A stretch of 53,100 nt of DNA, taken from the NCBI GenBank assembly GCA_046482825.1, contig JAWOEI010000093.1, forward strand, positions 1-53,100, in the 5' to 3' direction. The notes beneath the pieces are model-generated. The model was given only the letters and a program-made list of their open reading frames with translations, did not search any database and was not told where the DNA came from. Below, piece by piece: positions 1 through 43,806 of this stretch. Origin of the DNA: Kiritimatiellia bacterium (GTDB taxonomy: Bacteria > Verrucomicrobiota > Kiritimatiellia > RFP12 > UBA1067). Position numbers and translations under genes: made by a program. Every line of letters begins with the position of its first letter. The stretch's first letter is position 1.

Positions 1-165
1 GGGCGGTGGGAGCACCGTAAGACGAGCCCCTTTCCAGGAGGCAACCCGCCCGACCGGAGCCCGTTTGCGGCCCCGCTACGCTGCCGCGGACGGCCAAACG
101 GACATGACTTTTTTGGGGTAAAGCGGCCTTGGCGGTCGGGCAACCTCGGGTTGATACGGACATCC

Positions 166-24000: not shown

Positions 24001-24155
24001 CCGGGATAACGGGTACGAACCTGAATTTCAGGCGGCGTCACCTCCGGATACTGAGTGACCGGAAGATTCTTTATCGCAAGAACTCCGGCCAGCGAGAGCA
24101 CAACAGAGATAACCATCGCGAAACGGGGACGTTCTATAAAGACTTTGGAAATCAT
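21027..24155 (-). CDS. RND efflux permease (HAE1/AcrB family)
   Basis: [15 protein letters not shown], proton-relay [18 protein letters not shown] and RAVLMT; 1042 aa. Confidence 0.95.
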
Positions 24156-25408
24156 ATTTCGGCTGCTCCGTCGTTTACAGTGATACTTACGGATTCATGT
24201 CTGCCAGCATGTGACGGCATTTCCTCATCAACCCTCACTTTGACACCGTCTGAAAGGTTTAGAACACCTTCAACAACAACCTTTTCTCCATCCTTGACAC
24301 CTTCCATCAGCTCTACAGCACCTTTAAAAGTATCACCTGTTTTAACTTTGCGTCTGACGACTTTGCTGCTCTCAGCCAAAACATACACAAAGTCACCGTC
24401 GGAATTTGTATGCAGGGCGCTTTGAGAAATAACCGGATAGGGATGCGGATCTTTTTCATCTATCATAACAGTGACATAGCTGTTGGGGACCAGCAGACCG
24501 TCAGTATTACTGAAACGTATGCGTATAGACAGGTTTGCGGTACGGCCCGACATTTCATTGTTTTCAAAATCCGGTTCACCGCTTAAATCAGGAATTTTTC
24601 CGTTTGGCAGCCTGAGCCGCAGCCGCATCGTATCCCACAGGCGTTCATGGGAGATTTTATCACGCCATTCAAAATATTCGCGGTCTGTCATTGAAAAAAC
24701 AACGCGTATCGGATCCATCTGCACAATACGCACCAGTGTCCCTATAGAAGGCGCAACATAATCTCCGACAGTGGCGACGGCACGTCCTGTTTTACCGGAA
24801 ATAGGCGCATGAATGCGACAGTGCTTCAAATCGATTTCCGCCATACGCACACTTGCCTGCGCCTGCACAACCCCGGCCCTTCCGGCGGCGACGTCGCTTT
24901 CCGCCTTGTCCATATCAGCCTGTGTTATACCGCGCGCATCCGAAGCATTAAGTCTTTTCAGATAGCGTTCAGCACGCTCTACCTCCGCCTCGACCTGTGC
25001 CAGCTCGGCCTTGCGCAGAGCCACCACAGCCTCATAAGGTTCAAGGTCTATTTCAAACAGCAAATCACCTTCCTCAACTGATGCGCCTTCCTTGAAATTG
25101 ACTTTTGTGACATAACCCGAAACGCGGGCACCGAGATCAACATCTCTGACAGGCTCAACCCTGCCGATAAAATCAACTGGAGGATTGAGCGCTTTAAGTC
25201 CGGCCCGTTCCACCCTCACCAGAGGTTCACCGTCCTCAGCAGGCAGCAGACCGGCAGGCAGACCCTGCTCGGCATCCGGCATAATATCTTTAACCAGCCA
25301 TCCGATTACAAATGCGCATATTGCGGTAAACAGAACACCAAGAAATCTGGCGAGTGGATGTTCCTTCCGCTTTGTCCCTTCTTCACTGTGTATTTTTTTC
25401 TTCGTCAT
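24152..25408 (-). CDS. RND efflux periplasmic adaptor (MFP)
   Basis: N-terminal TM, ARVSGY...[15 protein letters not shown], helical hairpin, IHAPISG and DPIRVVFS. Overlaps the permease start. Confidence 0.92.
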
Positions 25409-25469
25409 AAATTTTTCCTTTTTGAAACTGTTTCCTGCTGATCAGCAGGGTTCTTTTGACAGACTGAAA

Positions 25470-26084
25470 TCACTGCGCCCGGATATTTTTTTCAACCGAA
25501 TCAATTAAACAATCGAACACCGCATCCACATCATAATCCATATCATCAGCACCCAGCCGGCAATGCAGCATGCCTATCCAGGTCAGCCCTATCATGTACG
25601 CGACATTCATCACATCCACTCCCGGACGCAGTTCCCCGCGTGCCTGCATGGAGCGGAATGCCGTGGCTGTCACATTGATCAGGGAATTATCAAGTATTTT
25701 AAGCTGTGCACCGACATTCTTCAGCGCTGGCCTCGACCAGTCCAGGTTCAACAGCATTTTGATATGCTTGCGGTTGGCTGGCACCTCAATCACACGGGCC
25801 ATCCATTCCTTGAGACCGGTGCGCAACTCATCGAAATTTTCCGGCTGAGAATTAATAATACGCTGATCACCGATCGCTTCATCGACGATATACACAACCA
25901 ACTGTTTCAAAAGTTCCGGTTTGCTGCTGAAATGCCAGTAAATCGCGCCTTTACTGAGCTTGATTCGGTCGGCAATTTTCTGAAAGGTTGTTTTGTCGTA
26001 ACCTTTTTTGGAAAAAATATCCAAAGCGGCCTTCAATATCTTAAGCCGTGTTTTTTCAGCGTCCTCTTTGGTTCTGCGAGCCAT
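25470..26084 (-). CDS. TetR/AcrR family transcriptional regulator
   Basis: MARRTKEDAEKTR...IADRIKLSKGAIYWHFSSK is an AcrR-type HTH. GGAG lies upstream of ATG 26084. Confidence 0.92.
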   Translation of the reverse strand: MARRTKEDAEKTRLKILKAALDIFSKKGYDKTTFQKIADRIKLSKGAIYWHFSSKPELLKQLVVYIVDEAIGDQRIINSQPENFDELRTGLKEWMARVIEVPANRKHIKMLLNLDWSRPALKNVGAQLKILDNSLINVTATAFRSMQARGELRPGVDVMNVAYMIGLTWIGMLHCRLGADDMDYDVDAVFDCLIDSVEKNIRAQ

Positions 26085-26114
26085 TTCAACTCTCCAATCA
26101 GTTATCGGTCGTGG

Positions 26115-26144
26115 ATTATACATACCTTCTGGTAGGTATGTAAA
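26115..26144 (-). promoter_or_regulatory. sigma70 promoter overlapped by a 24-bp AcrR-type operator
   Basis: Minus strand TTTACA-N18-TATAAT. Inverted repeat TACATACCT-N6-AGGTATGTA at 26119-26142. Confidence 0.8.
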
Positions 26145-26146
26145 CA

Positions 26147-26174
26147 AAAAAATCAAACAGCTGTTTGATTTTTT
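26147..26174. promoter_or_regulatory. Perfect 28-bp palindrome just upstream of the tetR promoter
   Basis: AAAAAATCAAACAG-CTGTTTGATTTTTT with no spacer. Confidence 0.5.
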
Positions 26175-26299
26175 GAGAGAGATGAAATCGGCCTTTAACC
26201 GAATAGCGGATACAAAAACCAATGGTGTTGCGGAAGATCAGAAAGTTCATTTCTGCGGTTAGAGGTGACGTATCTCAGACATCCGTCCAGTTTCAGGTT

Positions 26300-27745
26300 C
26301 TATCCGTCATCGGGTGTGAACCCGGATGTATCACTGTGTGTATCATTACGGTCACCAAAACGCGTAAGCTCATCAATAAAGTTCAGACGCACTTCACCTG
26401 TCGGCCCGTTACGATGTTTGGCAACATCGACGATGGCAAGTGTTTTATCATCGAACTCATCGTCCTTCGGCGCTTTGCAGGGACGTCTCAGAAGAAGTGC
26501 CACATCGGCATCCTGTTCGATGGCGCCGGAATCACGCAGATCGGAAAGTTTCGGTTTCTGGCTCCTGTCACCGCGCTGTTCCGGATTACGGCTGAGCTGA
26601 CTCAGCACTATCACCGGAATACTCAGCTCCTTGGCCATGGCTTTTATCTGGCCGGATATCTGCGACGTTTCAATCTGACGGCCCTGTCTGGAGAACTCAC
26701 GGTAGTTGCAGAGCTGGAGATAGTCGATGACTATCAGTTCAATATCATAACGCTTCTTCATGCGGCGGGCACGTGCACGCATATCCATTACATCAAGGCC
26801 GCCGGTATCATCCACATAAATCGGAGCATCCTTCAAGTCGTTTGCCGCTCTGCTAAGCTGCATATTTACATTTTTCGGGTTGAGAATACCCTGATCGATC
26901 TTAAAGGACGGCACTCTGGCCATGCCGCAGAGCATACGCATAGCAAGTGATTCTGTGGACATTTCGAGTGAAAACACACCCACTCCATGTTTACGGTTAT
27001 GTTCCCCTTTCATAGGCGGACCTTCAACAGTTCTTCCCAAAGCAACGCACTCCGCTATGTTCATAGCCAGCGAGGTCTTACCCATTGACGGACGGGCCGC
27101 AAGCACAATCATTTCACCGTTGCGTAACCCCTTGAGTTTTCTGTCAAGATTAGACAGCCCCGTAGGCATCCCGGCGACACCCCCGGCCCCAAGCGTAAAA
27201 AGACGGTCGATATGGGTAATCGTATTATTGACAGCCTGCTCCCAGCTCAGCCCCGTACCTTCCTGACGCTCGGAAATGCTGAGAAATTTCTGTTCTATTT
27301 CGCCCACCAGCAGATCAGCACTGACACTTTCCCTGTAACAGCTTGATTCCGCTTCACGCGCATACTGAATAATTCTGCGCAGCAGATGCTTCTGCCGGAT
27401 AATACCGATATAATATTCCGAGTGGGCAGCTGTGGGAGTCTGATCTATCAGCGACTGTATGTAGCCCACACCACCGCAGTTATCCAGCTGCTTTATGGAA
27501 CGCAGATGCTCGCAGACCGTCAGAGTATCTATAGTCTTTGATGCATGCGACATACCTTTGAGTGAATCAAAGAGTAATCTGTTGCGCTGATCATAAAATG
27601 TTTCCGGAACAATATGATTCTGCTCGCACAGATCCATAACTCTCTGACTGTCCAGCAGAATAGAGCCCAGAACCCCCCTTTCCGCCTCTTTGCTGCTGGG
27701 AGGAGTTCTTAAAGCGGTTTTAATATTTACGTTCTCTTCATTCAT
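26300..27745 (-). CDS. dnaB: Replicative DNA helicase
   Basis: PPSSKEAERGVLG, LAARPSMGKT, FSLEMS, IDYLQL, LSQLSR, SDLRDSGAIEQDAD and KHRNGPTG. Confidence 0.97.
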   Translation of the reverse strand: MNEENVNIKTALRTPPSSKEAERGVLGSILLDSQRVMDLCEQNHIVPETFYDQRNRLLFDSLKGMSHASKTIDTLTVCEHLRSIKQLDNCGGVGYIQSLIDQTPTAAHSEYYIGIIRQKHLLRRIIQYAREAESSCYRESVSADLLVGEIEQKFLSISERQEGTGLSWEQAVNNTITHIDRLFTLGAGGVAGMPTGLSNLDRKLKGLRNGEMIVLAARPSMGKTSLAMNIAECVALGRTVEGPPMKGEHNRKHGVGVFSLEMSTESLAMRMLCGMARVPSFKIDQGILNPKNVNMQLSRAANDLKDAPIYVDDTGGLDVMDMRARARRMKKRYDIELIVIDYLQLCNYREFSRQGRQIETSQISGQIKAMAKELSIPVIVLSQLSRNPEQRGDRSQKPKLSDLRDSGAIEQDADVALLLRRPCKAPKDDEFDDKTLAIVDVAKHRNGPTGEVRLNFIDELTRFGDRNDTHSDTSGFTPDDG

Positions 27746-28065: not shown

Positions 28066-28800
28066 ATGAAAGTAACTGTTTATGACAACAAGTCGGAAGT
28101 CGAAGCAGCCGCTGCCTGTCAGGCAGCCGAAGGCATAAAAACCGCGATTCTTTCAAAAGGTTGCGCCAATGTAATTCTGGCTGCGGATACCAGCCAACTC
28201 GACATGATCAATGTACTGGCATGTGTTCCTGAAATCGACTGGTCCTGCGTTACCGTTTTCGGTTTAAGTGAATTCATGGGGGTTGATGTTACACATCCTG
28301 CAAGTTTTCGCAGACATCTTACAGAGCGCTTCGTTGAACGTGTCGGCAATCTCAAAGGTACATATTTTATCAAAGGAGATTCCGAAGACCCCGAGGCCGA
28401 ATGCAGACGAATGAGCGATCTGATCAGTAAAAATCCTGCGGACGTGGCTTGTGTAGGCATAGGAGAAAATGGGCATCTGGCCTTTAACACCCCCCCTGCT
28501 GATTTCACAACCGACACTCCCTATGTTGTAGTACAACTCAATCAGGAATGCCGGGAAAAGCAGTTGGGTGAGAACTCCTTCTCTGATATGGAAAGTGTTC
28601 CTCTACAGGCAATCAGTATGAGTTTAAAACAAATAATGAAAAGCCGTAAAATCATTGCCGCAGTTCCCGAAAAGAGAAAAGCCCAAGCCGTTCGGAATAC
28701 ACTGAAAGAAAATATAAGTCCCGAATTTCCGGCCTCTATACTGAGAAGTCACCCGGATTGTCACCTGTTCGTAGATAAACCCGCAACAGCGCTCATGTAA
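28066..28800 (+). CDS. Glucosamine-6-phosphate deaminase (NagB)-like protein, probably catalytically altered
   Basis: HPASFR, GIGENGHLAFN, VPLQAISM, PASILRSH and LFVDK fit the NagB fold, but FGLSEF replaces F.(L/M)DEY. Confidence 0.8.
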   Translation: MKVTVYDNKSEVEAAAACQAAEGIKTAILSKGCANVILAADTSQLDMINVLACVPEIDWSCVTVFGLSEFMGVDVTHPASFRRHLTERFVERVGNLKGTYFIKGDSEDPEAECRRMSDLISKNPADVACVGIGENGHLAFNTPPADFTTDTPYVVVQLNQECREKQLGENSFSDMESVPLQAISMSLKQIMKSRKIIAAVPEKRKAQAVRNTLKENISPEFPASILRSHPDCHLFVDKPATALM

Positions 28801-28829
28801 ATACAGGGATCGTAGATAAAGTCGTAAAA

Positions 28830-29393
28830 TTACTTAATGCGGATACGTTCACCAGCTGTTTTCCCTGCTGATTCATGCGTGGCTATTTCCACATAAAGCA
28901 CCTTATTGGATATAAAGTGATTCAGACTTGCATTCTGAGTGTAGGCGCAGGGAACTCTTATTCTGCGTATGCAGGCCTGATTTTTATGCCTCATTACCAG
29001 AGTCAGGATATTACCGTCGACATTTACATCAACATCCTCGTTTTCTGTACCCCCGGGAAGAGCGAATCGTACTTCATAGGTTTCATCTTGCTCCCTTATG
29101 TCCATCAGAGGCCGCAGAGGAAGTTCAACACTTTCGGAAAAAACCATTTTTCTTGCTATCTGCGCAACTTTACCCCTTTCGTAAGCAACTGGAGCTGTTT
29201 TTATAGTTCTTCCGATCCTGTAGGTATCAACTGCGTTTTTCCGCATCTCAAGACCTTTGCGCCTGCCCACACCCCCCTCCCTTTCCCAATGTAATTTCCC
29301 AACCCTCATAAAAGTTCCCATAAGGATGAAAATCACAAGTATTAAAAGGGTGTCAAACGCAATCCATGAGTATTTAAAATGTTTTCCTGTCAT
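28830..29393 (-). CDS. Membrane-anchored Hsp20/alpha-crystallin-domain protein
   Basis: N-terminal TM (WIAFDTLLILVIFILMGTFM), ACD signature PLMDIREQDETYEVRFALPG...DVNVDGNILTL, NKVLYVEI and C-terminal IXI (RIRIK). GGGAG RBS; start 29393 or TTG 29396. Confidence 0.75.
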   Translation of the reverse strand: MTGKHFKYSWIAFDTLLILVIFILMGTFMRVGKLHWEREGGVGRRKGLEMRKNAVDTYRIGRTIKTAPVAYERGKVAQIARKMVFSESVELPLRPLMDIREQDETYEVRFALPGGTENEDVDVNVDGNILTLVMRHKNQACIRRIRVPCAYTQNASLNHFISNKVLYVEIATHESAGKTAGERIRIK

Positions 29394-29444
29394 CAACGTA
29401 AAAACTCCCAACAGTCCGTCGCCGCACAGTCTGTCTCAGGACTA

Positions 29445-29460
29445 TGCAGAACTTGTGCCA
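29445..29460 (-). promoter_or_regulatory. sigma54 (-24/-12) promoter for the Hsp20-domain gene
   Basis: Minus strand TGGCAC-AAGTT-CTGCA: correct GG-N10-GC spacing, one mismatch to TGGCAC-N5-TTGCW. Confidence 0.7.
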
Positions 29461-29578
29461 TCAGAACACACTTCATTTTTTTCATTATAATCTGCGGCAG
29501 AAAAGAGAGTTATTTTAAGAATTCAGGGTTTAGTGATTTCAGTATTCTCCGCGACTCCAGAACTCCACGGAACATAAA

Positions 29579-29615
29579 GTGTCACTCTGCCGCAGAAAAC
29601 GCGTCAGAATGACGC
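29579..29615. promoter_or_regulatory. Tandem upstream activator sites for a sigma54 enhancer-binding protein
   Basis: GTGTCA-CTC-TGCCGC (29579-29593) and perfect GCGTCA-GAA-TGACGC (29601-29615), 22 bp apart, between the two sigma54 promoters. Confidence 0.65.
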
Positions 29616-29622
29616 AATAATA

Positions 29623-29650
29623 TTGATTTCAGACAGGACTTTGTTATACT
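29623..29650 (+). promoter_or_regulatory. Putative sigma70 promoter for the two-component operon
   Basis: TTGATT-N16-TATACT with extended -10 (TGn). Confidence 0.45.
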
Positions 29651-29670
29651 CTCAAAGGCTTGTGAACAGA

Positions 29671-29686
29671 TGGCACAATGCTTGCT
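29671..29686 (+). promoter_or_regulatory. sigma54 (-24/-12) promoter for the two-component operon
   Basis: TGGCAC-AATGC-TTGCT matches the TGGCAC-N5-TTGCW consensus exactly. Confidence 0.75.
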
Positions 29687-29702
29687 GAATGGTGGCAGAG
29701 AT

Positions 29703-31097
29703 ATGGAATTACGCAGTACATTTTATGGTGGCAAATCAGGTCTGCGGCTGGAAATCATACTTTTTGCAGTGATTTTTTCAGCCGCTTTTCTTGCTGGTTA
29801 TATTCTTTTTGTTTTAAAATCGGATCATCAGGAAAAAACCCATATCGAGGCGGTTGAAAGAGTTATTGACCAGGGAGACCAGCTTCTCAAAGCACTGGTG
29901 ACCCATACAGAATACTGCTGTTCAACCAATCCGACGCCTGAAGAGTGGAGAAAGTTTTCCTCGCTTGTAGACAGGATTCTGGCTGTTAGAAAAGATATTC
30001 AGTCTATATCTATACGGAACGGAGATCTTACGGTGTTTCACCGGCAGGCGGACGGCGTGCTTTACCCTCAACAGAATGCCGTCCGCTCAGAATTGTCGGA
30101 CAATAAAACTATCATGTCGCGGGAGACGATAGACATCAACGGCAAGCAGGAACCGGTGTTTGTTTTTTCCAGACGCACTTCCGGCGATCCGGAGAACAAG
30201 CTTGTCCTTGAAACCACATTCACACGCGACGCAGTCACGGATAAAGAATCGATTGCAAACCAGATGATAGAGTCCTTATTCAATTTCTCACTAACAGTTC
30301 TCATTCTCTCTTCTGTCTTATCCGGCATGATTCTGGTTATCGCCCTGGCCCGTGATAAAAAACGTCAGGAAATATCCCGGCAGGAAGAACATCTGGCCTT
30401 TTCAGGTGTTATGGCAAACGGCATCCTCCATGATTTCAGAAATCCTATGTCAGCCGTACGGCTAGACGCCCAGATGCTTGAACGAGAAACAAAACGTAAG
30501 GACGGGATGCGTCAGGAACGTGTTCATGAGCTGGCGGAACGCATTGCCCGCGCAATGGGACGTATGGATAAGATTTTCGCTGAATTTCTGTATCTTGCCA
30601 AACCCGGCAATGAAAAGTCCGGGCCTCTGGACCTGCCGTCCGCACTCGATGAATGCATCGAAATCCTTGCGCCGAGAATCGAACAGGCTGAACTGACTGT
30701 CGAAAAGAAATTTGACCGGGAAATGGCCCCTGTCGCAGCCTACGCATTTGCAATTAAACGCGCCATGCTCAATGTAATCATAAATGCAATACATTTTTCA
30801 CCTGAAAAAGGACGCATTCTGATATCAGCACATCATAAAAATTCCAAAGCAATAATCGAAATCTGCGATGAAGGCCCCGGAATTCCGGAGAAAAAACGTA
30901 AAGAGGTTTTCAAACTTTTTGTTTCCGGACGACCTGAAGGAACGGGTCTGGGACTCTTTCTGGCAAAAACAGCAATAACCCGATGCGGTGGTAAAATCGA
31001 GGCGGTTGACAGCAGAAATACAACCGGCGCAGCAATCAGAATTACACTGCCTTTATATACCGCCAAACAACAGAACCACCTTTCAGGAGACAGATGA
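29703..31097 (+). CDS. Membrane sensor histidine kinase
   Basis: Two TM segments flanking a periplasmic domain; H-box ILHDFRNPM, N-box NVIINAIH, DEGPGI and GTGLGL. The ORF-track ATG at 29670 overlaps the sigma54 promoter, so 29703 is preferred. Confidence 0.9.
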   Translation: MELRSTFYGGKSGLRLEIILFAVIFSAAFLAGYILFVLKSDHQEKTHIEAVERVIDQGDQLLKALVTHTEYCCSTNPTPEEWRKFSSLVDRILAVRKDIQSISIRNGDLTVFHRQADGVLYPQQNAVRSELSDNKTIMSRETIDINGKQEPVFVFSRRTSGDPENKLVLETTFTRDAVTDKESIANQMIESLFNFSLTVLILSSVLSGMILVIALARDKKRQEISRQEEHLAFSGVMANGILHDFRNPMSAVRLDAQMLERETKRKDGMRQERVHELAERIARAMGRMDKIFAEFLYLAKPGNEKSGPLDLPSALDECIEILAPRIEQAELTVEKKFDREMAPVAAYAFAIKRAMLNVIINAIHFSPEKGRILISAHHKNSKAIIEICDEGPGIPEKKRKEVFKLFVSGRPEGTGLGLFLAKTAITRCGGKIEAVDSRNTTGAAIRITLPLYTAKQQNHLSGDR

Positions 31098-31098
31098 C

Positions 31099-32481
31099 AT
31101 GAGTAACAGACCAGTAATATTAATTATTGAAGATGATCCTGACAACCTGCGATCTGTAAAAGACGTGGCTGAAGATGCGGGATTCAAAACCTATTGCAGT
31201 CTCAACGGGATGCAGGGCGTGGAACTTTTCAGAAATGAACTGCCTGACGTGGTACTCAGCGATCTGGTTCTACCTGACATCGACGGTTTTGAAGTGCTGA
31301 AGCGCATTAAACATATCAAAAGCTCCATTCCCTTCATTATAATGACGGCCTACAGCTCGGTTGAATCAGGGGTCCGGGCTATGCGTGAAGGCGCCTATGA
31401 CTACATTACGAAACCCCTGGACATCGACGACATTCAGTCAAAACTGCGCCGTGCCTATGAAACATCATTGCTGCGTAAAAAAGTGGACAGCCTTTCCAGG
31501 TCGGTAAAAGAACGTTACGCTAAAACCGCAATCATAGCCGAGTCAATCGGCATGAAAAACGTTCTTGCCAAGATAGAAGCCCTTGCCGATACAAGTGCCA
31601 CCGTACTGATTCGCGGTGAAAGCGGCACCGGCAAGGAACTTGTCGCCAGAGCGCTGCATGTGGATTCTATCCGGGGAGAAGGCCCGTTTGTAGCTGTTAA
31701 CTGCGGAGCATTTGCCGAAAACCTGCTGGAATCGGAGCTTTTCGGACACGAAAAGGGTGCTTTCACCGGAGCATCCGGAACACATAAAGGAGCCTTTGAA
31801 AGAGCACATGGAGGCACCCTTTTCCTCGATGAAATCGGTGACGCACCGCAATCAGTACAGGTCAAACTCCTGCGTGCGCTGGAATTGAAAGAGGTGCGCC
31901 GGGTTGGCGGACGGGAGACCTTCAGTGTCAATGTGCGTCTGGTTTCGGCTACCAACAAAGATCTGGAAGCCATGGTTGAAGAGGAGAACTTCCGGGAGGA
32001 TCTGCTCTATCGTCTTAATGTGGTCACCCTGCAAATACCGCCGCTGCGCGAAAGAATCGCGGATATACGTCTGATGACAGACCGTTTTATAGCATCTGCA
32101 ACAGCCGACAACAATATACAGGTTCACCGTGTTGATGCATCTTTTTACGATATGCTTGAGACTTATGACTGGCCGGGCAATGTACGTCAGCTTAAGAATG
32201 TTATTGAATCAGCTGTGCTGCTTTCCCCCGAAGGCATTCTTAAAGCAGAATCCGTCAATCTTCCTCAGACCGCTATCCGAAAAAAAAACACACGAACTCA
32301 GGAACCGGCTTCTGACGGCATCGGGGAATTCGATGATCTCACACTGGATGAAATAGAAAAACTGGTACTTGAAGAGCGTCTGAAAAAAAATAACGGCAAC
32401 CGCACGCTTACCGCTGAACAGCTGGGTATATCCCGCAGAACAATACAACGCAAAATTAAAGAGCATGAGTTACCTTACTGA
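31099..32481 (+). CDS. sigma54-dependent response regulator (NtrC/ZraR family: REC-AAA-HTH)
   Basis: IIEDD, SDLVLP, GESGTGKELVA, ESELFGHEKGAFTGA (intact GAFTGA), LFLDEIG, FREDLLYRL, WPGNVRQL and Fis-type HTH. AGGAG precedes ATG 31099. Confidence 0.95.
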   Translation: MSNRPVILIIEDDPDNLRSVKDVAEDAGFKTYCSLNGMQGVELFRNELPDVVLSDLVLPDIDGFEVLKRIKHIKSSIPFIIMTAYSSVESGVRAMREGAYDYITKPLDIDDIQSKLRRAYETSLLRKKVDSLSRSVKERYAKTAIIAESIGMKNVLAKIEALADTSATVLIRGESGTGKELVARALHVDSIRGEGPFVAVNCGAFAENLLESELFGHEKGAFTGASGTHKGAFERAHGGTLFLDEIGDAPQSVQVKLLRALELKEVRRVGGRETFSVNVRLVSATNKDLEAMVEEENFREDLLYRLNVVTLQIPPLRERIADIRLMTDRFIASATADNNIQVHRVDASFYDMLETYDWPGNVRQLKNVIESAVLLSPEGILKAESVNLPQTAIRKKNTRTQEPASDGIGEFDDLTLDEIEKLVLEERLKKNNGNRTLTAEQLGISRRTIQRKIKEHELPY

Positions 32482-32607
32482 GACAGCCAATCACAATTTT
32501 TTTTCCGCTTATAGTGACAGAACAGGGATATTTTTGCTATTTTCTCAAACTGAATGTTTGAGTTTCACTGGTTATTATACAACAAATAATAAAGAGGATA
32601 AGTAAGA

Positions 32608-33342
32608 ATGCTAAATGTAAGTGACCTGAAAAAAAACTTCGGCCCTATTCAGGCGGTAAAAGGTATATCCTTTTCCGTTGAAAAGGGTGAAGTGTTAGGT
32701 TTCCTGGGGCCGAACGGCGCAGGAAAAAGCACGTCCATGCGTATGATTACCGGCTTTATACCGCCTACATCGGGTACAGTCTCTATCTGCGGACATGATA
32801 TTATCGAAGACCCTGTGGCAGCCAAAAAATGTATAGGCTATCTTCCCGAGAATGCACCGGCCTATCAGAATATGACTGTTGCAGAGTTTCTGACCTTCAT
32901 TGCAAAAATCAGAGGATTCAGCGGATCAGGGCTGAAGTCAAAGGTCGATGCGGCTGTCGCCAAAAGCCGGCTTGAGTCTGTTCTGAACCGCTCGATAGAA
33001 ACCCTCTCCAAGGGTTACAGACAAAGAACCTGTTTTGCGCAGGCGATAATGCATGATCCCGAAGTGCTGATTATGGATGAGCCCACCGACGGGCTTGATC
33101 CCAACCAGAAATATGTCGTGCACGAAATGATCAAAGATATGGCTGCTGACAAAGTGATTATAGTATCAACTCATATCCTCGAAGAGGTGGATACTGTGTG
33201 CAGCCGCGCAATTATCATTTCAGACGGTAAAATTGTTGCTAACGGAACCCCGGAAGAGTTGCGTTCACAGGATCCGCAGAAACGTCTTGATATGGTTTTT
33301 CGCAAACTCACCATGAAAGAAGAGGAGGCAGTAAATGAGTAA
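32608..33342 (+). CDS. ABC transporter ATP-binding protein (GldA-like)
   Basis: GPNGAGKST, LSKGYRQR signature, MDEPTDGLDPNQ and STHIL. Confidence 0.9.
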   Translation: MLNVSDLKKNFGPIQAVKGISFSVEKGEVLGFLGPNGAGKSTSMRMITGFIPPTSGTVSICGHDIIEDPVAAKKCIGYLPENAPAYQNMTVAEFLTFIAKIRGFSGSGLKSKVDAAVAKSRLESVLNRSIETLSKGYRQRTCFAQAIMHDPEVLIMDEPTDGLDPNQKYVVHEMIKDMAADKVIIVSTHILEEVDTVCSRAIIISDGKIVANGTPEELRSQDPQKRLDMVFRKLTMKEEEAVNE

Positions 33343-34081
33343 TCCAGCGCATATTCGTACTATCTTTAAACGGGAATTCAAATCTTATTTTAACTCCCCC
33401 GTGGCATATGTGTTTCTGGTCGCTTTTCTGGTTCTGATCGGATTTCTGACATTCGGCGTCACTATGTTCTACGAAAGGCGCCAGGCTGATCTGACCCCTT
33501 TCTTCTTCTGGCATCCGTGGGTGTATCTCCTGCTGATACCGGCATCGACTATGGGGCTCTGGGCTGAAGAACGCCGCACAGGAACCATTGAACTGCTTCT
33601 TACCCTTCCGGTAACACTGGTCGAAGCACTGGTCGGTAAATTCTTGGCCGCATGGGCTTTTATCGGAATTGCGCTGGCATTGACGTTTCCGGTAGTGCTG
33701 ACAACACTCTGGCTGGGGTCCCCGGATATGGGAGCCGTCATCGGCGGCTATTTCGGATCACTGCTGCTCTCAGGAGCATGTGTGGCAATAGGAATATTTG
33801 CCTCGGCATTATCCCGCAGTCAGGTGATAAGCTTTGTTATTGCCCTGGCTATCTGTCTGTTTATGCTGATCATAGGTTTTGATCCAGTAATTAATTCCGT
33901 TGCCAAGCGGGGAATTCCTTCCGCAATTGTTGACGGTCTGGCCGCCTGTTCCCTGATGCAGCATTTTGACTCCATGCGCCGGGGTGTCATTGATTTTTAC
34001 GATATCAGCTACTATGCAGGAGTCGTTATATTTATGTTAAGTGCCGCTCATTTTGTCACTGAGAGCCGTAAAGCCTCTTAA
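33335..34081 (+). CDS. ABC-2 permease (GldF-like)
   Basis: FKREFKSYFNSPVAYV, EERRTGTIELLLTLP, GKFLA, HFDSMRRGVID; multiple TM segments. Confidence 0.88.
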   Translation: MSNPAHIRTIFKREFKSYFNSPVAYVFLVAFLVLIGFLTFGVTMFYERRQADLTPFFFWHPWVYLLLIPASTMGLWAEERRTGTIELLLTLPVTLVEALVGKFLAAWAFIGIALALTFPVVLTTLWLGSPDMGAVIGGYFGSLLLSGACVAIGIFASALSRSQVISFVIALAICLFMLIIGFDPVINSVAKRGIPSAIVDGLAACSLMQHFDSMRRGVIDFYDISYYAGVVIFMLSAAHFVTESRKAS

Positions 34082-34104
34082 TCCCTAATTTAAGGAATTG
34101 AATC

Positions 34105-35994
34105 ATGTCTGACAAAAAACACATATCTGTTTCAAAAATCAGCGGCGGCATAGCCGGACTTATCCTGCTGCTTGTAATCATTATTGCTGTTAACATGATT
34201 ATCAGCAGTCTGCCGCTTCGTATGGATCTCACCGAGGAAAAACTTTATACCCTTTCAAAGGGTACGCAAAAGATACTTGGAAAACTTGAAGACGAGGTGA
34301 TACTGAAATTCTATTTCAGCAAAAGCTCCCGCGAAATGCCGCAGGCCCTCAAAACCTATGCTAATCAGGTTCAGGATCTTCTCAAAGAGTATGAAATTGC
34401 CGGCAAAGGCAATCTTATACTGGAGGCTTATGATACAGAACCTGATTCTGACGCAGAGGAGTGGGCACAGCGTTACGGCATAGAGCCTCAGCAGACATCC
34501 ATGCTAGGTTCACCTGTCTATTTCGGTATGGCGGCAATTTGCGACGATAACAAGGATGTTATCCCCGGATTCTCTCCGCAGACAGAATCCACACTGGAGT
34601 ACGATATCACACGGCTGATCACACGCGTTGCCTGGCCGGAAAAACCGGTAATCGGCGTAATGAGTTCACTGAGCGTCCTGGGGAGCTCTCCCAACCCCAT
34701 GATGATGCAGCAAGGTCAGAAGCCCGATGAAGGCTGGATGGCATTCCAGAATCTGCGCAAGGATTACACCGTACGTGAAATCCCCGCAGATACGGAAACA
34801 ATCGAGGACGATATAAAAACCCTGATCGTTATTCATCCTAAAAACCTTTCGGATGAAGCCCTTTTTGCCATTGATCAGTTTATTATGCGCGGTGGACGTC
34901 TGATTGCGTGTGTCGATCCGTTCAGTATTGCCGATTTTGAAAGCAACGCTCAGCAGAACCCCATGATGGGAGGCCGGGGCGGTCCCGAACAGCCGGGCCC
35001 TTCCACACTCGGAAGGCTCTTTGATACCTGGGGCATCGGGTATGACAAGTCAAAAATCGTGGCTGACCTGAGTTGCGCGACTAAACTCAACAGCGGTGAC
35101 GGACGCGTGGAAGACAATCCCGCGTTTCTCTCCCTTTCCGATGAAAACATGGCCGATGGCGATCTGCTGACAGCCCAACTCTCACAGGTGATGTTGCCCT
35201 TTGCAGGAGCCTTGCAGGACAACACCAGTTCAAAACTCACATTCACGCCTATGGTGGAATCCTCGGATGACAACTCCTGCATGATAGATCAGATGAATGC
35301 TCAGTTCGGCATGAGCGCAATGCGCGCGCAACTCAAGCCTGACGGGAAAAAACGTGTTATGGCGGCCCGTATCCAGGGTGAGTTCAAGACGGCTTTCACA
35401 GACGGCATGGTGGGATCCGCTACCAACAAGGTGGAAAATCTTCTCAGTTCCGGCACAAGCACTGTCATGGTTTTTGCCGATGCGGATTTTCTTAACGACC
35501 GTTTCTGTGTGCAGACAAGGAATTCTCTTTTCGGCCGTATTGCACAGCCTATAAACAACAACCTCACGCTTTTTGCAAATACGGTTGAACAGTTTGCAGG
35601 CAACGAAGAACTGATAGGCGTCCGTTCACGCGGAAACTTCGCCCGTCCTTTCACTAAAGTTGATAAACTTGAAGCAAAGGCCATGAAGAAGTGGCAGGCG
35701 GAGGAAGAACGCCTCGAGGCTGCGCTGCAGGAAACGCAGCAGCGTCTCTCCGAACTGCAGAAGCAGAAAACCGGGAACAAAAGCCTGATACTTTCGGAAG
35801 AGCAGCAGAAAGAGCTGGAACGTTTCCGCGAGCAGCAAGCTGATACCCGTAAACAGCTTAAGGAAGTGCGTAAAAACCTCCATAAAGACATCGAAGATCT
35901 CGGGAGAACAATCAAGGCAGTGAATATCGTCCTGATTCCTGTGCTGATAATAATTTTCGGCATTGTCCACGGAGTTCGCCGCAAAAAAAATTAA
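34105..35994 (+). CDS. GldG-family ABC auxiliary component
   Basis: TM followed by RMDLTEEKLYTLS, LEYDITRLI, AIDQFIMRGG, VFADADFL, coiled coil and C-terminal TM. Confidence 0.85.
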   Translation: MSDKKHISVSKISGGIAGLILLLVIIIAVNMIISSLPLRMDLTEEKLYTLSKGTQKILGKLEDEVILKFYFSKSSREMPQALKTYANQVQDLLKEYEIAGKGNLILEAYDTEPDSDAEEWAQRYGIEPQQTSMLGSPVYFGMAAICDDNKDVIPGFSPQTESTLEYDITRLITRVAWPEKPVIGVMSSLSVLGSSPNPMMMQQGQKPDEGWMAFQNLRKDYTVREIPADTETIEDDIKTLIVIHPKNLSDEALFAIDQFIMRGGRLIACVDPFSIADFESNAQQNPMMGGRGGPEQPGPSTLGRLFDTWGIGYDKSKIVADLSCATKLNSGDGRVEDNPAFLSLSDENMADGDLLTAQLSQVMLPFAGALQDNTSSKLTFTPMVESSDDNSCMIDQMNAQFGMSAMRAQLKPDGKKRVMAARIQGEFKTAFTDGMVGSATNKVENLLSSGTSTVMVFADADFLNDRFCVQTRNSLFGRIAQPINNNLTLFANTVEQFAGNEELIGVRSRGNFARPFTKVDKLEAKAMKKWQAEEERLEAALQETQQRLSELQKQKTGNKSLILSEEQQKELERFREQQADTRKQLKEVRKNLHKDIEDLGRTIKAVNIVLIPVLIIIFGIVHGVRRKKN

Positions 35995-36010
35995 TATGAG
36001 GATTAAAAAA

Positions 36011-37063
36011 ATGAAAAGAAATAAACTGATAGGACTTGCTGCCGCGGCTCTGGTTCTGAGTGTGGCGGCTTATATGACAAGCAGCAGCCGAAAAGTGAAA
36101 ACGCCTTCCTGTCTGGGAAAACCGGTTCTGCCGGGACTGGACCTGAGCAGGATACGTAAAATCGAACTCAAAGATAAAAATGATCAGACCCTCAAGCTGG
36201 AAAGCAGTGACAGCGGCTGGAAAATAACTTCACACTTCGATTATCCGGCCGATATACCCATCATCCGGAAACAGCTGCTGAAAATAAAAGAACTCAGAAT
36301 CGGTCAGAAAGCCGATGCTGAAAAAGTGACTGACGCAACTGTTCTTGATATGCAGGATAAAACAGGCAGATCCATCGCAACGCTGCGTCTCGGAGATGAA
36401 CATCTCGGTAAAGCCAGAGGACAGATGACTCAGTACAGCGGCGGCTCTTTCCCGGACGGACGCTATGTTGCGCCCGGAGGTGACGAAAAGGCATATCTGG
36501 TGAAAGAGCCTCTCAGCTCGTTTACACCGGATGTAAAGAACTGGACGGATACAGAGATTGTCGATATCTCATCATCAGATGTAAACGGCATAGCCCTTAT
36601 CAAAGGTGATGAGGTATGCACTCTCTCGAAAAAAGAAGGCAGTTGGACGGTCGCCGGATTAAATACAAATGAAGAATTCGACACATCTTCATCCTATTCG
36701 CTTGAATCAGCACTGAGTTCTCTCTCATTCACTGATCTTGGTGATCCGGCCATGAGTGACAGTGCAAGCGGCATTTCAACTGGAGCGTTTTACAAAGTTA
36801 CATTGAAGAACGGCGAAAGTTATACCGCATCACTCGGCAACACTACTGAAGGCAGCTCTGACCGATACATGAAAATAGCAGCTTCCTTCACCCCGCAGGG
36901 CACCAATGAAACCGTCAATACCGCAGCCCGGACGAAGATCGAGAACTTCAATGAAAAAACATCGGAATGGCTGTATGTCATTCCTTCACACAAAGCTGAA
37001 AGTATGCTGAAAACACGCTCCGACCTTGTTAAAAATAAAGAAGAGCAAGAGGAAAACAAATAA
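36011..37063 (+). CDS. DUF4340-like membrane-anchored periplasmic protein
   Basis: N-terminal TM, repeated W...YPAD / L.LG motifs, and the usual position after gldG. GAGGA precedes ATG 36011. Confidence 0.65.
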   Translation: MKRNKLIGLAAAALVLSVAAYMTSSSRKVKTPSCLGKPVLPGLDLSRIRKIELKDKNDQTLKLESSDSGWKITSHFDYPADIPIIRKQLLKIKELRIGQKADAEKVTDATVLDMQDKTGRSIATLRLGDEHLGKARGQMTQYSGGSFPDGRYVAPGGDEKAYLVKEPLSSFTPDVKNWTDTEIVDISSSDVNGIALIKGDEVCTLSKKEGSWTVAGLNTNEEFDTSSSYSLESALSSLSFTDLGDPAMSDSASGISTGAFYKVTLKNGESYTASLGNTTEGSSDRYMKIAASFTPQGTNETVNTAARTKIENFNEKTSEWLYVIPSHKAESMLKTRSDLVKNKEEQEENK

Positions 37064-38146: not shown

Positions 38147-38204
38147 GGACAGGAAGCAATCCTGTCAGTGCCACCACAACATCTATACCCTACTGAAACA
38201 CGCG

Positions 38205-39083: not shown

Positions 39084-39090
39084 TTGTTTC

Positions 39091-40056: not shown

Positions 40057-40141
40057 TCAGAAACACGCAGGAAAGTTATACCCGACATACGCACAAACTG
40101 GAAATCTTCAACTTTAAAACTGAAAACATTATTTTAAACTC

Positions 40142-41179: not shown

Positions 41180-41232
41180 CCGGTTGGATCTGCATTCGCG
41201 TTATTTGCAGTTAAAAAAAGGATCAATAATCA

Positions 41233-43806
<2,574 letters not shown>

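Follow-up and report, generated by a model that had tools for sequence, protein, structure and literature searches.

A sigma-54 module of the Kiritimatiellia, found in the 53.1 kb stretch of DNA analyzed here (the window), looks like an undescribed system for damaged cell-envelope proteins, and we consider it likely that this module is the control center of a lineage-specific sigma-54 regulon for envelope protein quality control. The regulon is analogous to the ZraPSR and Cpx systems, not homologous with them. We propose that a membrane kinase, predicted to sense through a PDC/Cache-like domain in the periplasm, phosphorylates an activator of the NtrC type, which would bind two palindromes (GCGnCA-N3-TGnCGC) lying two helical turns apart between divergent sigma-54 promoters and fire both of them. 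One promoter would supply a small heat-shock protein (sHSP) that an N-terminal signal anchor would tether to the inner membrane, the chaperone domain facing the periplasm, and the other would amplify the kinase/regulator operon, probably reading on into an ABC-2/GldG/DUF4340 transporter cluster. Basal levels of kinase and regulator would come from a sigma-70-like promoter adjoining the enhancer. Elsewhere in the genome, a like arrangement of enhancer and sigma-54 box would drive a DegP/HtrA protease gene and, in the family, also small RNAs that share an invariant core containing CUCC. The module would then extend beyond positions 28830-32481, probably to the ABC-2 cluster and, judging from motifs on other contigs, to further putative regulon members. 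Shown here are the sequence elements and how they are conserved, which genes occur together, and the folds, whereas sigma-54 dependence, binding by the activator, the periplasmic placement and holdase activity of the sHSP, the signal that induces the circuit and possible feedback on the kinase are inferred.

Promoters and Enhancer Sites

Table 1. Coordinates of the module and of the genes downstream, as positions in the window.
Feature	Position	Strand	Sequence	Basis
Signal-anchored alpha-crystallin-domain protein gene, 187 aa	28830..29393	-		Translation, Pfam HSP20
Crystallin-gene sigma-54 -24/-12 box, TGGCAC-N5-CTGCA	29445..29460	-	TGGCACAAGTTCTGCA	Pattern match
Candidate enhancer (UAS) site 1, GTGTCA-N3-TGCCGC	29579..29593		GTGTCACTCTGCCGC	
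Candidate enhancer (UAS) site 2, perfect palindrome GCGTCA-N3-TGACGC	29601..29615		GCGTCAGAATGACGC	
Sigma-70-like promoter, TTGATT, 16 nt, TATACT, TG extension	29623..29650	+		Consensus scan
Kinase/regulator-operon sigma-54 -24/-12 box, perfect TGGCAC-N5-TTGCT	29671..29686	+	TGGCACAATGCTTGCT	Pattern match
Sensor histidine kinase	29703..31097	+		Pfam HisKA + HATPase_c
NtrC-family response regulator/bacterial enhancer-binding protein	31099..32481	+		REC, sigma-54 AAA+, Fis-type HTH
Four-gene ABC-2/GldG/DUF4340 cluster	32608..37063	+		Pfam
ABC ATPase gene	32608-33342	+		Pfam
ABC-2 permease gene	33335-34081	+		Pfam
GldG-like auxiliary protein gene	34105-35994	+		Pfam
DUF4340 protein gene	35963-37063	+		Pfam

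The gene starts in Table 1 are those supported by homologues (29393, 29703, and 31099); the mechanical open reading frames begin at 29411 (TTG), 29670 and 30988 (GTG). The initial annotation of this DNA had described two back-to-back sigma-54 promoters with two phased palindromes between them, and both parts of that description hold. TGGCAC-N5-YTGCW matches only twice in the window, at these two boxes; shuffled sequence gave a mean of 0.11 matches, with two reached in 1/100 shuffles. The palindromes start 22 bp apart and their occurrence is non-random, with a mean of 0.03 matches in shuffled sequence and three matches reached in 0/100 shuffles. The checks suggested by the annotation included motif conservation and the presence of rpoN, and its guess that the organism belongs to the Kiritimatiellia proved correct. 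The rpoN gene is found on contig C27 of the same genome (Sigma54_DBD 197.9 bits; 485-aa frame), and orthologous intergenic regions retain both -24/-12 boxes and palindromes. Across other genomes of the class, 40/46 loci have a sigma-54 box ahead of the crystallin orthologue (background, 0.05 per 600 nt), and a divergent kinase accompanied by both boxes is present in 14/19 relatives' loci, the kinase-operon box in these 14 often reading CGGCAC-N5-CTGCT. The upstream regions of relatives' loci yield the palindrome consensus G[CT]GnCA-N3-TGnC[GA]C, at a density of 2.96 per kb vs. 0.15 per kb of background (~19x enriched). Pairs spaced 20-24 bp occur in 16/39 loci, or 13/17 within the family, and a relaxed matrix detects pairs in 14/39 loci vs. 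0/408 control windows; in six of the 39 loci the palindrome was not found, relaxed matrix included. In some lineages the crystallin gene has no linkage to the kinase and still keeps a sigma-54 box together with a variant palindrome (GGACA-N3-TGTCGC or GGACA-N3-TGTCC).

Transcription of the crystallin gene from its sigma-54 box is predicted to start near 29434, giving a leader of ~41 nt with GGGAG ahead of the ATG. For the kinase, the sigma-54 start predicted near 29697 lies ~6 nt ahead of the ATG, and the message would be unusual in being nearly leaderless. A new finding beyond the initial annotation is the sigma-70-like promoter that adjoins the kinase-proximal palindrome; it begins 7 nt past UAS 2, is oriented toward the kinase operon and is the probable basal promoter of that operon. 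The pattern TTGnnn-16..18-TAnnnT begins 7-8 nt past the kinase-proximal UAS in 11/28 UAS-bearing loci, all of them in the family, and at 23/2300 (1%) random control positions. In glnAp1/glnAp2 of the NtrBC system, a sigma-70 promoter adjoins the activator sites and is followed by a sigma-54 promoter in one operon. The order here is alike, with the sigma-70-like promoter beside an activator site and then a sigma-54 box in the same operon; however, the -35 hexamer here begins 7-8 nt past the site without overlapping it, so that the arrangement does not imply that the basal promoter is repressed.

The Alpha-Crystallin Protein

The predicted primary sigma-54 target of the module is the crystallin gene. 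Its product had been annotated as a membrane-anchored alpha-crystallin protein, in agreement with Pfam HSP20, the N-terminal hydrophobic helix and the structural model: a transmembrane (TM) helix (~4-34) is followed by a low-confidence linker and an alpha-crystallin domain (ACD; ~97-172). The window protein barely passes Pfam HSP20 (21.7 bits vs. a cut-off of 20.8), which is matched by 110/137 representatives of the crystallin family. Against the PDB, the family profile finds Hsp21 (E 1.4e-16), with profile positions 46-198 aligned to Hsp21 chain 33-199, i.e., past the ACD, and 56/56 matched sequences bear sHSP-type names. In the AlphaFold model the ACD has block-mean pLDDT values of 87-94, and Foldseek with this model gave 69 matches at E<=1e-3; among the matches listed, all are sHSPs. 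The C-terminal hydrophobic motif of sHSPs occurs in 43/137 family members, and distant members carry a Met-rich stretch ahead of the ACD (7.7% Met vs. 3.8% overall). The protein thus shares the ACD fold of classical sHSPs (IbpA/B, Hsp16.5, chloroplast Hsp21) but differs from them in its N-terminal signal anchor and probable periplasmic location, and in the window's family also in a shortened beta5-beta7 loop and a C-terminal tail that is missing in most members. Deletion of the beta5-beta7 loop leaves the window ACD short and, given this and the marginal Pfam score, classical sHSP oligomers may not form. Among the classical proteins, E. coli ibpB is described as being under sigma-54 control (PMC2831329).

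Within the family, W10 and L17 of the TM helix are nearly invariant and D14 is invariant, and distant members show a D/E-R...Q pattern in the helix. The linkers that follow have a high content of Pro, Ser, and Ala, resembling extracytoplasmic tethers. The positive-inside rule is the sole basis of our topology call, by which the crystallin domain probably faces the periplasm, anchored in the inner membrane. In 18/18 relatives the N flank of the helix carries more positive charge than the C flank; of 126 representatives, 98 share this bias and 13 show the reverse, with mean net charges of +2.4 (N flank) and +0.4 (C flank). The bias is least clear in the window protein (+3 for the N flank, +2 for the C flank). 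The literature searched yielded no extracytoplasmic sHSP chaperone, and the proposed periplasmic role is therefore without precedent there.

Sensor Kinase and Response Regulator

A sensor kinase and an NtrC-type activator with intact GAFTGA had been annotated, and Pfam domains confirm both. In the kinase, two TM helices surround a ~150-aa periplasmic domain and are followed by the DHp and catalytic domains; a HAMP domain is absent. The periplasmic sensor is predicted to adopt a PDC/Cache-like fold (model pLDDT 77.7), its best structural matches being WalK, KinD, and chemoreceptor Cache domains, with a WalK-YycH model on top and sCache_3_2 as the Atlas lead. The WalK extracellular Cache domain, to which it is closest, matches in fold only (E 1.4e-4, TM by target 0.53-0.58, identity 11-14%). 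Among solved structures, none is related to the sensor domain in sequence, and this sensor type is found only within the class. WalK with YycH/YycI offers a precedent for a single-pass membrane partner controlling such a kinase, although WalR is OmpR-type and neither YycH nor YycI is an ACD protein. The response regulator is one of five strong Sigma54_activat matches in the genome. Its best NCBIfam matches (AtoC, NtrC, and ZraR) are all under the equivalog cut-offs, with ZraR scoring 377 vs. a cut-off of 760, lower than AtoC and NtrC; the kinase reaches 113.6 bits vs. 479 for ZraS, through its cytoplasmic half only.

Gene Coupling and the Transporter Cluster

The crystallin gene is conserved in 18/24 same-family genomes, and where it is missing in the family the kinase is missing as well (5/5). 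Cross-tabulation of two presence tables, for the crystallin gene and the kinase sensor, over 201 genomes of the class placed both in 40, the crystallin gene only in four, the sensor only in 22 and neither in 135. One lineage carries the crystallin gene, DegP, and ABC genes in one string beside the kinase, and in three lineages the crystallin gene stands in a string with ABC genes. The ABC-2/GldG/DUF4340 genes probably belong to the module as downstream members, through co-transcription or co-regulation, as their arrangement suggests: no terminator-like site was found on the + strand of the gap between regulator and ABC genes (32482-32607), and in 12/16 fetched loci the cluster lies downstream of a module promoter, after the regulator gene in nine and downstream of the crystallin gene, on its strand, in three. 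However, the cluster is non-adjacent to the module in 4/16 loci and is retained in 3/5 genomes without the module, and its membership is therefore weaker.

Putative Regulon Members Elsewhere

In the window's genome, a palindrome pair lies upstream of only 5/257 sigma-54-like boxes: the two in the module, one that precedes a DegP/HtrA gene located on a different contig, and two that precede RNA genes. Orthologues of this DegP, which bears a signal peptide, have a sigma-54 box in 18/19 loci and a palindrome in 17/19, and two DegP paralogues have neither. The DegP box deviates from consensus at -12 (AAGCT) and lies 170-285 nt ahead of the gene. The envelope-stress reading of the initial annotation gains support from this enhancer and box, as well as from the flank charges of the crystallin protein. 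The RNA family comprises 23 loci, of which 10 are stand-alone (nine with a sigma-54 box) and 13 lie directly after degP, starting right after its stop codon; the degP 3' region holds two tandem copies. An Rfam search returned nothing above the gathering score, a target search identified no targets and Hfq was not found with Pfam PF17209 in the window's genome (88% complete). The terminator shows compensatory changes in 6/14 pairs, and the CUCC of the invariant core is suggestive of pairing with ribosome-binding sites.

Comparison With Known Systems

ZraR is described as controlling the divergent sigma-54 promoters of zraSR and zraP, the latter encoding a periplasmic chaperone (PMC4987338), and E. 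coli zraP and zraS are each reported to bear -24/-12 boxes (PMC2831329). The module resembles ZraPSR of E. coli and Salmonella, by analogy, in combining an apparently autoregulated NtrC-type pair with a divergent gene for a putative extracytoplasmic chaperone. It differs in its predicted PDC/Cache-like sensor, in a target that is a membrane-anchored sHSP rather than a soluble ZraP/CpxP-family protein, and in adding a sigma-70-like promoter and a putative regulon that reaches DegP and small RNAs. The initial annotation had called the module zraP/zraSR-like and had given the Hsp20 domain a ZraP/Spy-type role. The divergent, shared-enhancer architecture stands and flank charges favor extracytoplasmic placement, but equivalog scores far under the cut-offs do not support Zra orthology and the protein does not belong to the ZraP/CpxP/Spy family.

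In Cpx, a two-component system induces DegP, a chaperone or accessory protein of the periplasm and an sRNA from the 3' UTR of a regulon mRNA, and the putative regulon here would do likewise; the RNA copies here follow the degP stop much as CpxQ, described as an sRNA cut from the cpxP 3' UTR (PMC4817254), follows cpxP. However, CpxR is OmpR-type and sigma-70-dependent, whereas the regulator here is a sigma-54 enhancer-binding protein, and the RNA here also occurs stand-alone with its own sigma-54 promoters. In a table of PMC4987338, glmY and glmZ stand under GlrR, with TGTC-N10-GACA as the site, and GlrKR (QseEF) is similar in its NtrC-type regulator, paralogous sRNAs, sigma-54 promoters, and upstream palindromes, but those RNAs and binding sites are unrelated to the ones here.

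Alternative Readings

The circuit could be unchanged and the crystallin domain cytoplasmic, as a tethered sHSP guarding the inner membrane face or nascent membrane proteins, with heat or membrane stress as the trigger rather than periplasmic stress; we regard this as unlikely. To our knowledge, all characterized bacterial sHSPs are cytoplasmic and some are membrane-associated, which favors such a placement, as do the nearly balanced flanks of the window protein and the 13/126 representatives with a more positive C flank. The flank charges of all 18 relatives and of 98/126 representatives point the other way, however, and so do the tether-like linkers, the periplasmic or envelope nature of the co-regulated partners (signal-peptide DegP, ABC-2/GldG exporter) and a kinase predicted to sense through a periplasmic domain. 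Quite improbable, too, is a crystallin protein that is mainly a signaling or transport accessory, i.e., a single-pass kinase tuner or an ABC-2/GldG subunit, and not a chaperone. YycH and YycI tune WalK, and CpxP tunes CpxA. The conserved polar and aromatic TM positions would suit such a role, along with the joint presence and absence of crystallin protein and kinase, the WalK extracellular domain and WalK-YycH model as the nearest solved folds of the sensor, and the strings with ABC genes in three lineages. Nevertheless, the ACD is the best-conserved part of the protein, distant members retain sHSP hallmarks and the gene also occurs unlinked from the kinase with its promoter kept. The two roles are also compatible, ZraP and CpxP having both.

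It is very improbable that the module is orthologous to zinc-responsive ZraPSR, with a swapped accessory protein. Divergent sigma-54 promoters, a shared enhancer, an NtrC-type two-component pair and the presence of ZraS and ZraR among the better NCBIfam matches agree with such descent, but both scores fall far below the equivalog cut-offs, the sensor is confined to the class and lacks a sequence relative among solved structures, and the target is matched by HSP20, not by any ZraP/CpxP/Spy family. That the sigma-54 and palindrome motifs are chance or relic, with the genes using ordinary promoters, is scarcely credible: one shuffle in 100 did yield two sigma-54 matches, but motif position, strand, and spacing are kept across dozens of genera, and the pairing recurs at DegP and RNA genes and not at the DegP paralogues.

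Divergent Promoters and Layout of the Module

The overall picture that emerges from the window and its relatives is, as far as sequence can tell, that of an envelope stress response, in which a periplasm-sensing kinase and an autoregulated activator would drive a chaperone-type protein, DegP and small RNAs, and probably also an exporter. The initial annotation had described back-to-back sigma-54 promoters with two palindromes 22 bp apart between them, and all of these elements were recovered by reading positions 28700-30400 and by pattern searches. The pattern TGGCAC-N5-YTGCW has two matches in the whole window, TGGCACAAGTTCTGCA and TGGCACAATGCTTGCT, against a shuffle expectation of 0.11, and in both boxes the GG and GC lie ten bases apart, as in the consensus TGGCAC-N5-TTGCW. 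The starts of the two palindromes are spaced by 22 bp, with a shuffle expectation of 0.03 matches. The genome also encodes rpoN, a check proposed at the outset, on its contig C27, and a search of this 2.73-Mb genome, which is 88% complete, gave five strong sigma-54 activator matches, the module regulator among them.

Features of the divergent module, in window positions
Feature	Position	Strand	Basis
Sigma-54 -24/-12 box TGGCACAAGTTCTGCA	29460-29445	-	pattern search
Sigma-54 -24/-12 box TGGCACAATGCTTGCT	29671-29686	+	pattern search
Palindrome 1 GTGTCACTCTGCCGC	29579-29593		pattern search
Palindrome 2 GCGTCAGAATGACGC	29601-29615		pattern search
Sigma-70-like promoter (TTGATT, 16 nt, TATACT, upstream TG), directly past the kinase-proximal palindrome	29623-29650		
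187-aa protein with N-terminal hydrophobic helix and marginal HSP20 match	29393-28830	-	
Histidine kinase	29703-31097	+	
Regulator, REC/GAFTGA-AAA+/Fis-HTH	31099-32481	+	

The kinase operon appears to have a second promoter. An element of the form TTGnnn-16..18-TAnnnT starts 7-8 nt past the kinase-proximal palindrome in 11 of 28 palindrome-bearing loci, all 11 belonging to the family, compared with 23 of 2300 random positions that pass the same test. We read this sigma-70-like element as a putative basal promoter that would maintain a supply of kinase and regulator, while positive autoregulation of the operon would come from the sigma-54 promoter further downstream. The glnAp1/glnAp2 layout likewise combines a basal promoter with a downstream sigma-54 promoter; in the present module the -35 hexamer and the activator site are free of overlap.

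The distance from promoter to start codon is short in several places. At the kinase start (window 29686-29705) the ATG lies 16 nt past the sigma-54 box, so that the predicted mRNA is nearly leaderless. Kinases of three other genera have their ATG 12-14 nt past the box (counted by hand; loci including L050-L059), as has the crystallin gene in 13 loci at class level. For many of these sigma-54 promoters, hardly any leader, or none, would thus be expected on the mRNA. An RNA thermometer in the crystallin 5' leader was also considered and rejected, as the fold of 29434-29375 (-11.4 kcal/mol, z -0.6) is nothing special.

Conservation Across Genomes

A crystallin-type protein is encoded in 18 of 24 genomes of the family, and the divergent upstream kinase with both -24/-12 boxes is present in 14 of the 19 loci fetched from other genomes. 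The initial annotation had made its case dependent on the motifs being conserved in orthologous intergenic regions, and they are. Across 46 loci, all from other genomes (18 from the family and 28 from the wider class), a sigma-54 box with at most two mismatches and intact GG and GC stands within 600 nt upstream of the crystallin domain on the coding strand in 40, with a background of 22 boxes per 258 kb. In the 420 nt that precede these boxes, the palindrome G[CT]GnCA-N3-TGnC[GA]C has a density of 2.96 per kb, compared with 0.15 per kb elsewhere, and pairs 20-24 bp apart are found in 16 of 39 loci overall and in 13 of 17 within the family. With a relaxed matrix, at least one palindrome site is detected in 33 of 39 loci and a pair in 14 of 39, compared with none of 408 control windows. 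In genera in which the crystallin gene and the kinase lie on separate contigs, the crystallin promoter keeps its box and a variant palindrome (GGACA-N3-TGTCGC plus GCGCA-N3-TGGCGC, or GGACA-N3-TGTCC), which argues that the crystallin gene is the primary target of the regulator and more than a mere neighbor.

The distributions of kinase and crystallin gene can also be compared at higher ranks. A profile of the kinase sensor half matches 62 of 201 class genomes. In this set the crystallin profile, which was built from one family and is less sensitive than the sensor profile, has matches in 44. Both are present in 40 genomes, the crystallin gene only in four, the sensor only in 22 and neither in 135, a cross-tabulation that is no statistical test since the genomes share kinship. 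No kinase was found in the five family genomes without the crystallin gene at E<=1e-30. All 23 sensor matches in a phylum-wide sample of 301 genomes fall in genomes of the same class or closer, and the 200 genomes that represent family f60 and another 30 families are without a sensor match. The module is also present in a closed genome of the family (6.1 Mb), which should make it open to experiment.

In one class-level family (L038, L039, L044, and L048), the crystallin gene is preceded by three to five copies of a different palindrome, TTCCAAT-n-ATTGGAA, which are spaced about 33 bp apart and fill part of the stretch from the enhancer region to the sigma-54 box.

A Membrane-Anchored Crystallin Protein

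The target gene had been described as encoding a transmembrane-anchored alpha-crystallin protein, and this description holds in its hydrophobic N-terminal helix, its HSP20 match and its sHSP-like model. The window protein itself scores 21.7-21.9 bits for HSP20 (PF00011) against a cut-off of 20.8, over profile positions 1-40 only. The family to which it belongs comprises 571 cluster representatives at E<=1e-3 among 1.8 billion proteins, and 110 of the 137 full-length representatives match HSP20 at E<=0.01; the three close homologues returned by a protein search carry no source-given name. Searched against the PDB, the family profile retrieves 56 sequences, all named small heat-shock, alpha-crystallin or related chaperone, with chloroplast Hsp21 as the best match (E 1.4e-16). 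In the AlphaFold model, residues 4-34 form a helix of high confidence and residues 97-172 a sandwich of seven strands (block-mean pLDDT of 87-94), and the linker that joins the two is of low confidence. With this model Foldseek finds 69 PDB matches at E<=1e-3, of which those listed are all sHSP crystallin domains (for example 4rzk_A, with a TM by target of 0.75 and an rmsd of 2.3 over 81 columns). The modeled fold is thus the alpha-crystallin beta-sandwich that characterizes the sHSP family, and a protein-language-model atlas agrees with the sHSP assignment.

Within this fold the window's own family has a shortened strand 5-7 loop, and most of its members stop directly after the last strand; the window protein has a unique tail that includes I-R-I, a candidate for the C-terminal I/V-x-I/V anchoring motif with which sHSPs assemble into oligomers. 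A terminal hydrophobic motif, [RKQ][LIVM][FLMIYW], ends 43 of 137 representatives. Distant members are closer to canonical sHSPs, with LPGPV and NGVL motifs, a Met-enriched stretch and the terminal hydrophobic motif. The 40 residues ahead of the crystallin domain contain 7.7% Met vs 3.8% overall (alignment A5), with at least four Met ahead of the domain in 41 of 100 members. The family profile aligns to chloroplast Hsp21 across the N-terminal region of that protein, a region that is Met-rich.

The orientation of the protein can be judged from the charges that flank its helix. The N-terminal flank is more positive than the 15 residues past the helix in 18 of 18 relatives, and among 126 representatives it is the more positive in 98, equal in 15 and reversed in 13 (mean net charge +2.4 vs +0.4). 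From these charges and the positive-inside rule we infer a type II signal anchor that would place the crystallin domain in the periplasm. A cleavable signal peptide was rejected, as the hydrophobic stretch of about 19-22 residues is too long and a conserved small-x-small site was not seen by inspection. The family conserves D14 without exception and W10 and L17 almost so, all three toward the predicted cytoplasmic end of the helix, and this conservation suggests that the helix may have a role beyond anchoring. Distant members have a D/E-R ... Q pattern in the anchor helix, and TM1 of the kinase in the same family starts with a conserved R-L-E. Such conserved residues in both helices may be a hint of a helix-helix contact of the crystallin protein with the kinase.

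Kinase and Regulator

The kinase and the NtrC-type activator proposed at the outset were both recognized by their Pfam domains, and GAFTGA is visible in the translation of the regulator. By these domain assignments (Response_reg 90.8 bits, Sigma54_activat 232 bits, HTH_8 45.3 bits) the regulator is classed as a bacterial enhancer-binding protein of the NtrC family. The sensor half of the kinase has no match to a Pfam sensor family by sequence, and its N-terminal 232 residues have no relative among solved structures in a sequence search (best E 0.33). The model of residues 1-210 (pLDDT 77.7) runs from the TM1 helix into a long periplasmic helix (10-69), followed by a second helix (79-95), five strands (99-174) and a helix (176-209) that leads back into TM2. 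Foldseek retrieves the Cache domains of WalK, KinD, McpA, and Tlp at E 1e-4 to 1e-3 with a TM by target of 0.5-0.6, and the atlas lead is sCache_3_2; the modeled sensor thus has features of the PDC/Cache fold. The kinase lacks a HAMP domain, the H box following close behind TM2.

The layout itself would invite the view that this is a Zra system. Orthology was rejected, however, as the kinase scores 113.6 bits vs a ZraS equivalog cut-off of 479 and the regulator 377 vs 760 for ZraR. The AtoC and NtrC equivalog cut-offs are also missed by wide margins, and the pair is therefore regarded as a separate NtrC-family system. In the crystallin target, HSP20 is the one Pfam family found, with no match to the ZraP/CpxP/Spy family.

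DegP and Other Candidate Targets

A scan of the whole genome identified 257 sigma-54-like boxes, and only five of these have a palindrome pair 40-360 nt upstream, namely the two in the window and those at C68:27250, C129:18674, and C61:12084 on other contigs. The gene past C68:27250 encodes a signal peptide, Trypsin_2 and two PDZ domains, which identifies it as DegP/HtrA. The envelope-stress circuit that the initial annotation had inferred thus gains a further candidate target, as both the palindrome pair and the box precede this gene. In relatives, the DegP orthologues have a box 60-285 nt upstream in 18 of 19 loci and a palindrome further up in 17 of 19; two degP paralogues in the same genomes have neither. 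In the wider class, the box is present at two of four DegP orthologues examined; one orthologue lies directly past the crystallin gene. Counted by genus within the family, 11 genera combine the crystallin gene with the DegP orthologue and with the RNA described below, six have none of the three and three are mixed.

Past the regulator, the window holds genes for an ABC ATPase, an ABC-2 permease, a GldG-like protein (ABC_transp_aux) and a DUF4340 protein, as assigned by Pfam. The 126-nt gap that separates this cluster from the regulator contains no terminator-like site on the plus strand and a weak sigma-70-like match. Among 16 longer loci the cluster lies past the regulator in nine, past the crystallin gene and on its strand in two, and is not adjacent in four; in a further lineage, G134, the crystallin gene, DegP and the ABC ATPase form one string. 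The cluster is downstream of, and co-directional with, a module sigma-54 promoter in 12 of the 16 loci, and three of five genomes without the module retain it. Judged by these placements, the ABC cluster appears to be independent of the module and older than it, with the module often exerting control over it or simply lying next to it.

A weaker palindrome-like pair is present at C75:43851-44305 (locus L080), some 130-150 nt upstream of the sigma-54-like box TGGCACGTTCCATGCG. Downstream of this box is a gene for a 79-aa secreted Cys/Lys-rich protein without a Pfam match, which may belong to the regulon as well and could bind metal.

Candidate Small RNAs

No open frame is found past the promoters on C129 and C61. 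What follows them is a pair of homologous stretches, each about 200 nt long, which differ in their 5' parts and have in common a 3' part composed of a CA-rich tract, the core AGACCACTCCTGT and an intrinsic terminator. A DNA search located this RNA element in 16 of 24 family genomes, and the 23 loci comprise 10 that stand alone and 13 that start directly past the degP stop codon; the window genome has two tandem copies past degP. Nine of the ten stand-alone copies have a sigma-54 box 150-232 nt ahead of the 3' end, the tenth being cut by a contig end, and a palindrome-like site is present at eight. Compensatory changes affect 6 of 14 pairs of the terminator, and the core is unvaried in 18 of 20 copies. 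Rfam gives nothing over the gathering score at the RNA loci (best SdsR_RyeB, 26 vs 38 bits). A covariance model detects the RNA in 2 of 151 class genomes, both of the window's family, and the RNA arm is therefore seen as a family-level addition outside the class-wide core.

The core holds CUCC and could pair with Shine-Dalgarno sequences. Exact complements of at least 9 nt to the core number 72, with few ahead of an ORF and no concentration at ribosome-binding sites, and a search for Hfq (PF17209) in the 88%-complete genome did not find it. Within the degP reading frame, about 500 nt ahead of the RNA 3' end, a TGGCAC-N5-nnTGCC/T match is present in 9 of 13 loci (including L115, L117-L121, L129, and L130), mostly without a palindrome nearby. 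In the window genome this match encodes the residues V-A-H-I-M-L, and it could either be due to chance in the coding sequence or serve the 3' RNA as an internal promoter.

Relation to Known Stress Responses

To our knowledge, nearly all envelope stress responses that have been worked out in detail are those of Proteobacteria (sigma-E, Cpx, Rcs, Psp, Zra). Three described systems share part of the logic seen here. ZraPSR has divergent sigma-54 promoters for zraSR and a periplasmic chaperone gene (PMC4987338; PMC2831329), and predicted divergent sigma-54 promoters with common activator sites are a feature of this type that is present here. The working logic is alike, but here the kinase and regulator are not ZraS/ZraR equivalogs and the target is not ZraP/CpxP/Spy. 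Cpx controls degP and the 3'UTR sRNA CpxQ (PMC4817254), to which the motif-bearing degP (18 of 19 loci) and the predicted RNA copies past degP (13 loci) may correspond, whereas the regulator here is not of the OmpR type. The predicted sigma-54-driven paralogous sRNAs of the present genome also recall GlrR with the sigma-54-driven paralogous sRNAs glmY and glmZ (PMC4987338). On sequence comparison the module is assigned to none of these three systems; homology to the proteins that define them goes no further than the superfamily. The initial annotation had considered the module undescribed, and in searches of the openly accessible literature we likewise found no sigma-54/two-component module with a membrane-anchored sHSP, no periplasmic (extracytoplasmic) sHSP and no description of such a module in work on DUF4340/GldG.

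We tentatively propose, with rather less than even confidence in the whole, that Kiritimatiellia have an envelope stress response of their own, built from parts not so used in model bacteria. A Cache-type kinase and a sigma-54 activator would jointly control an inner-membrane-tethered extracytoplasmic sHSP, DegP, an ABC-2/GldG exporter and small RNAs with an anti-Shine-Dalgarno-like core, some copies of which would derive from the degP 3' UTR, and the sHSP would act both as a holdase and, via its polar TM helix, as a feedback partner of the kinase. With non-homologous parts, the locus appears to have come to the logic of Cpx and Zra (chaperone, DegP, 3'UTR sRNA, and autoregulation). If the crystallin domain is truly periplasmic, the territory of sHSPs extends to an ATP-free compartment and client release becomes a question. 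For a PVC lineage that has been little studied, the locus offers a regulon that is compact and defined by motifs, and the palindrome with the -24/-12 box is a simple rule for regulon prediction in any genome of the class.

Further Genes in the Window

The 6-phosphogluconolactonase-like gene at 28066-28800 is convergent with the crystallin gene, and DnaB is encoded at 26300-27745. Further upstream, 21027-26222 on the minus strand encodes an AcrB-type RND pump, a membrane-fusion protein and a TetR regulator. On the other side, directly past the DUF4340 gene, the plus strand at 37163-43806 carries a Bat/MoxR-type cluster, another envelope-associated set, which comprises a MoxR AAA ATPase, a DUF58 protein, two VWA proteins, of which one has TPR, and an unassigned ORF.
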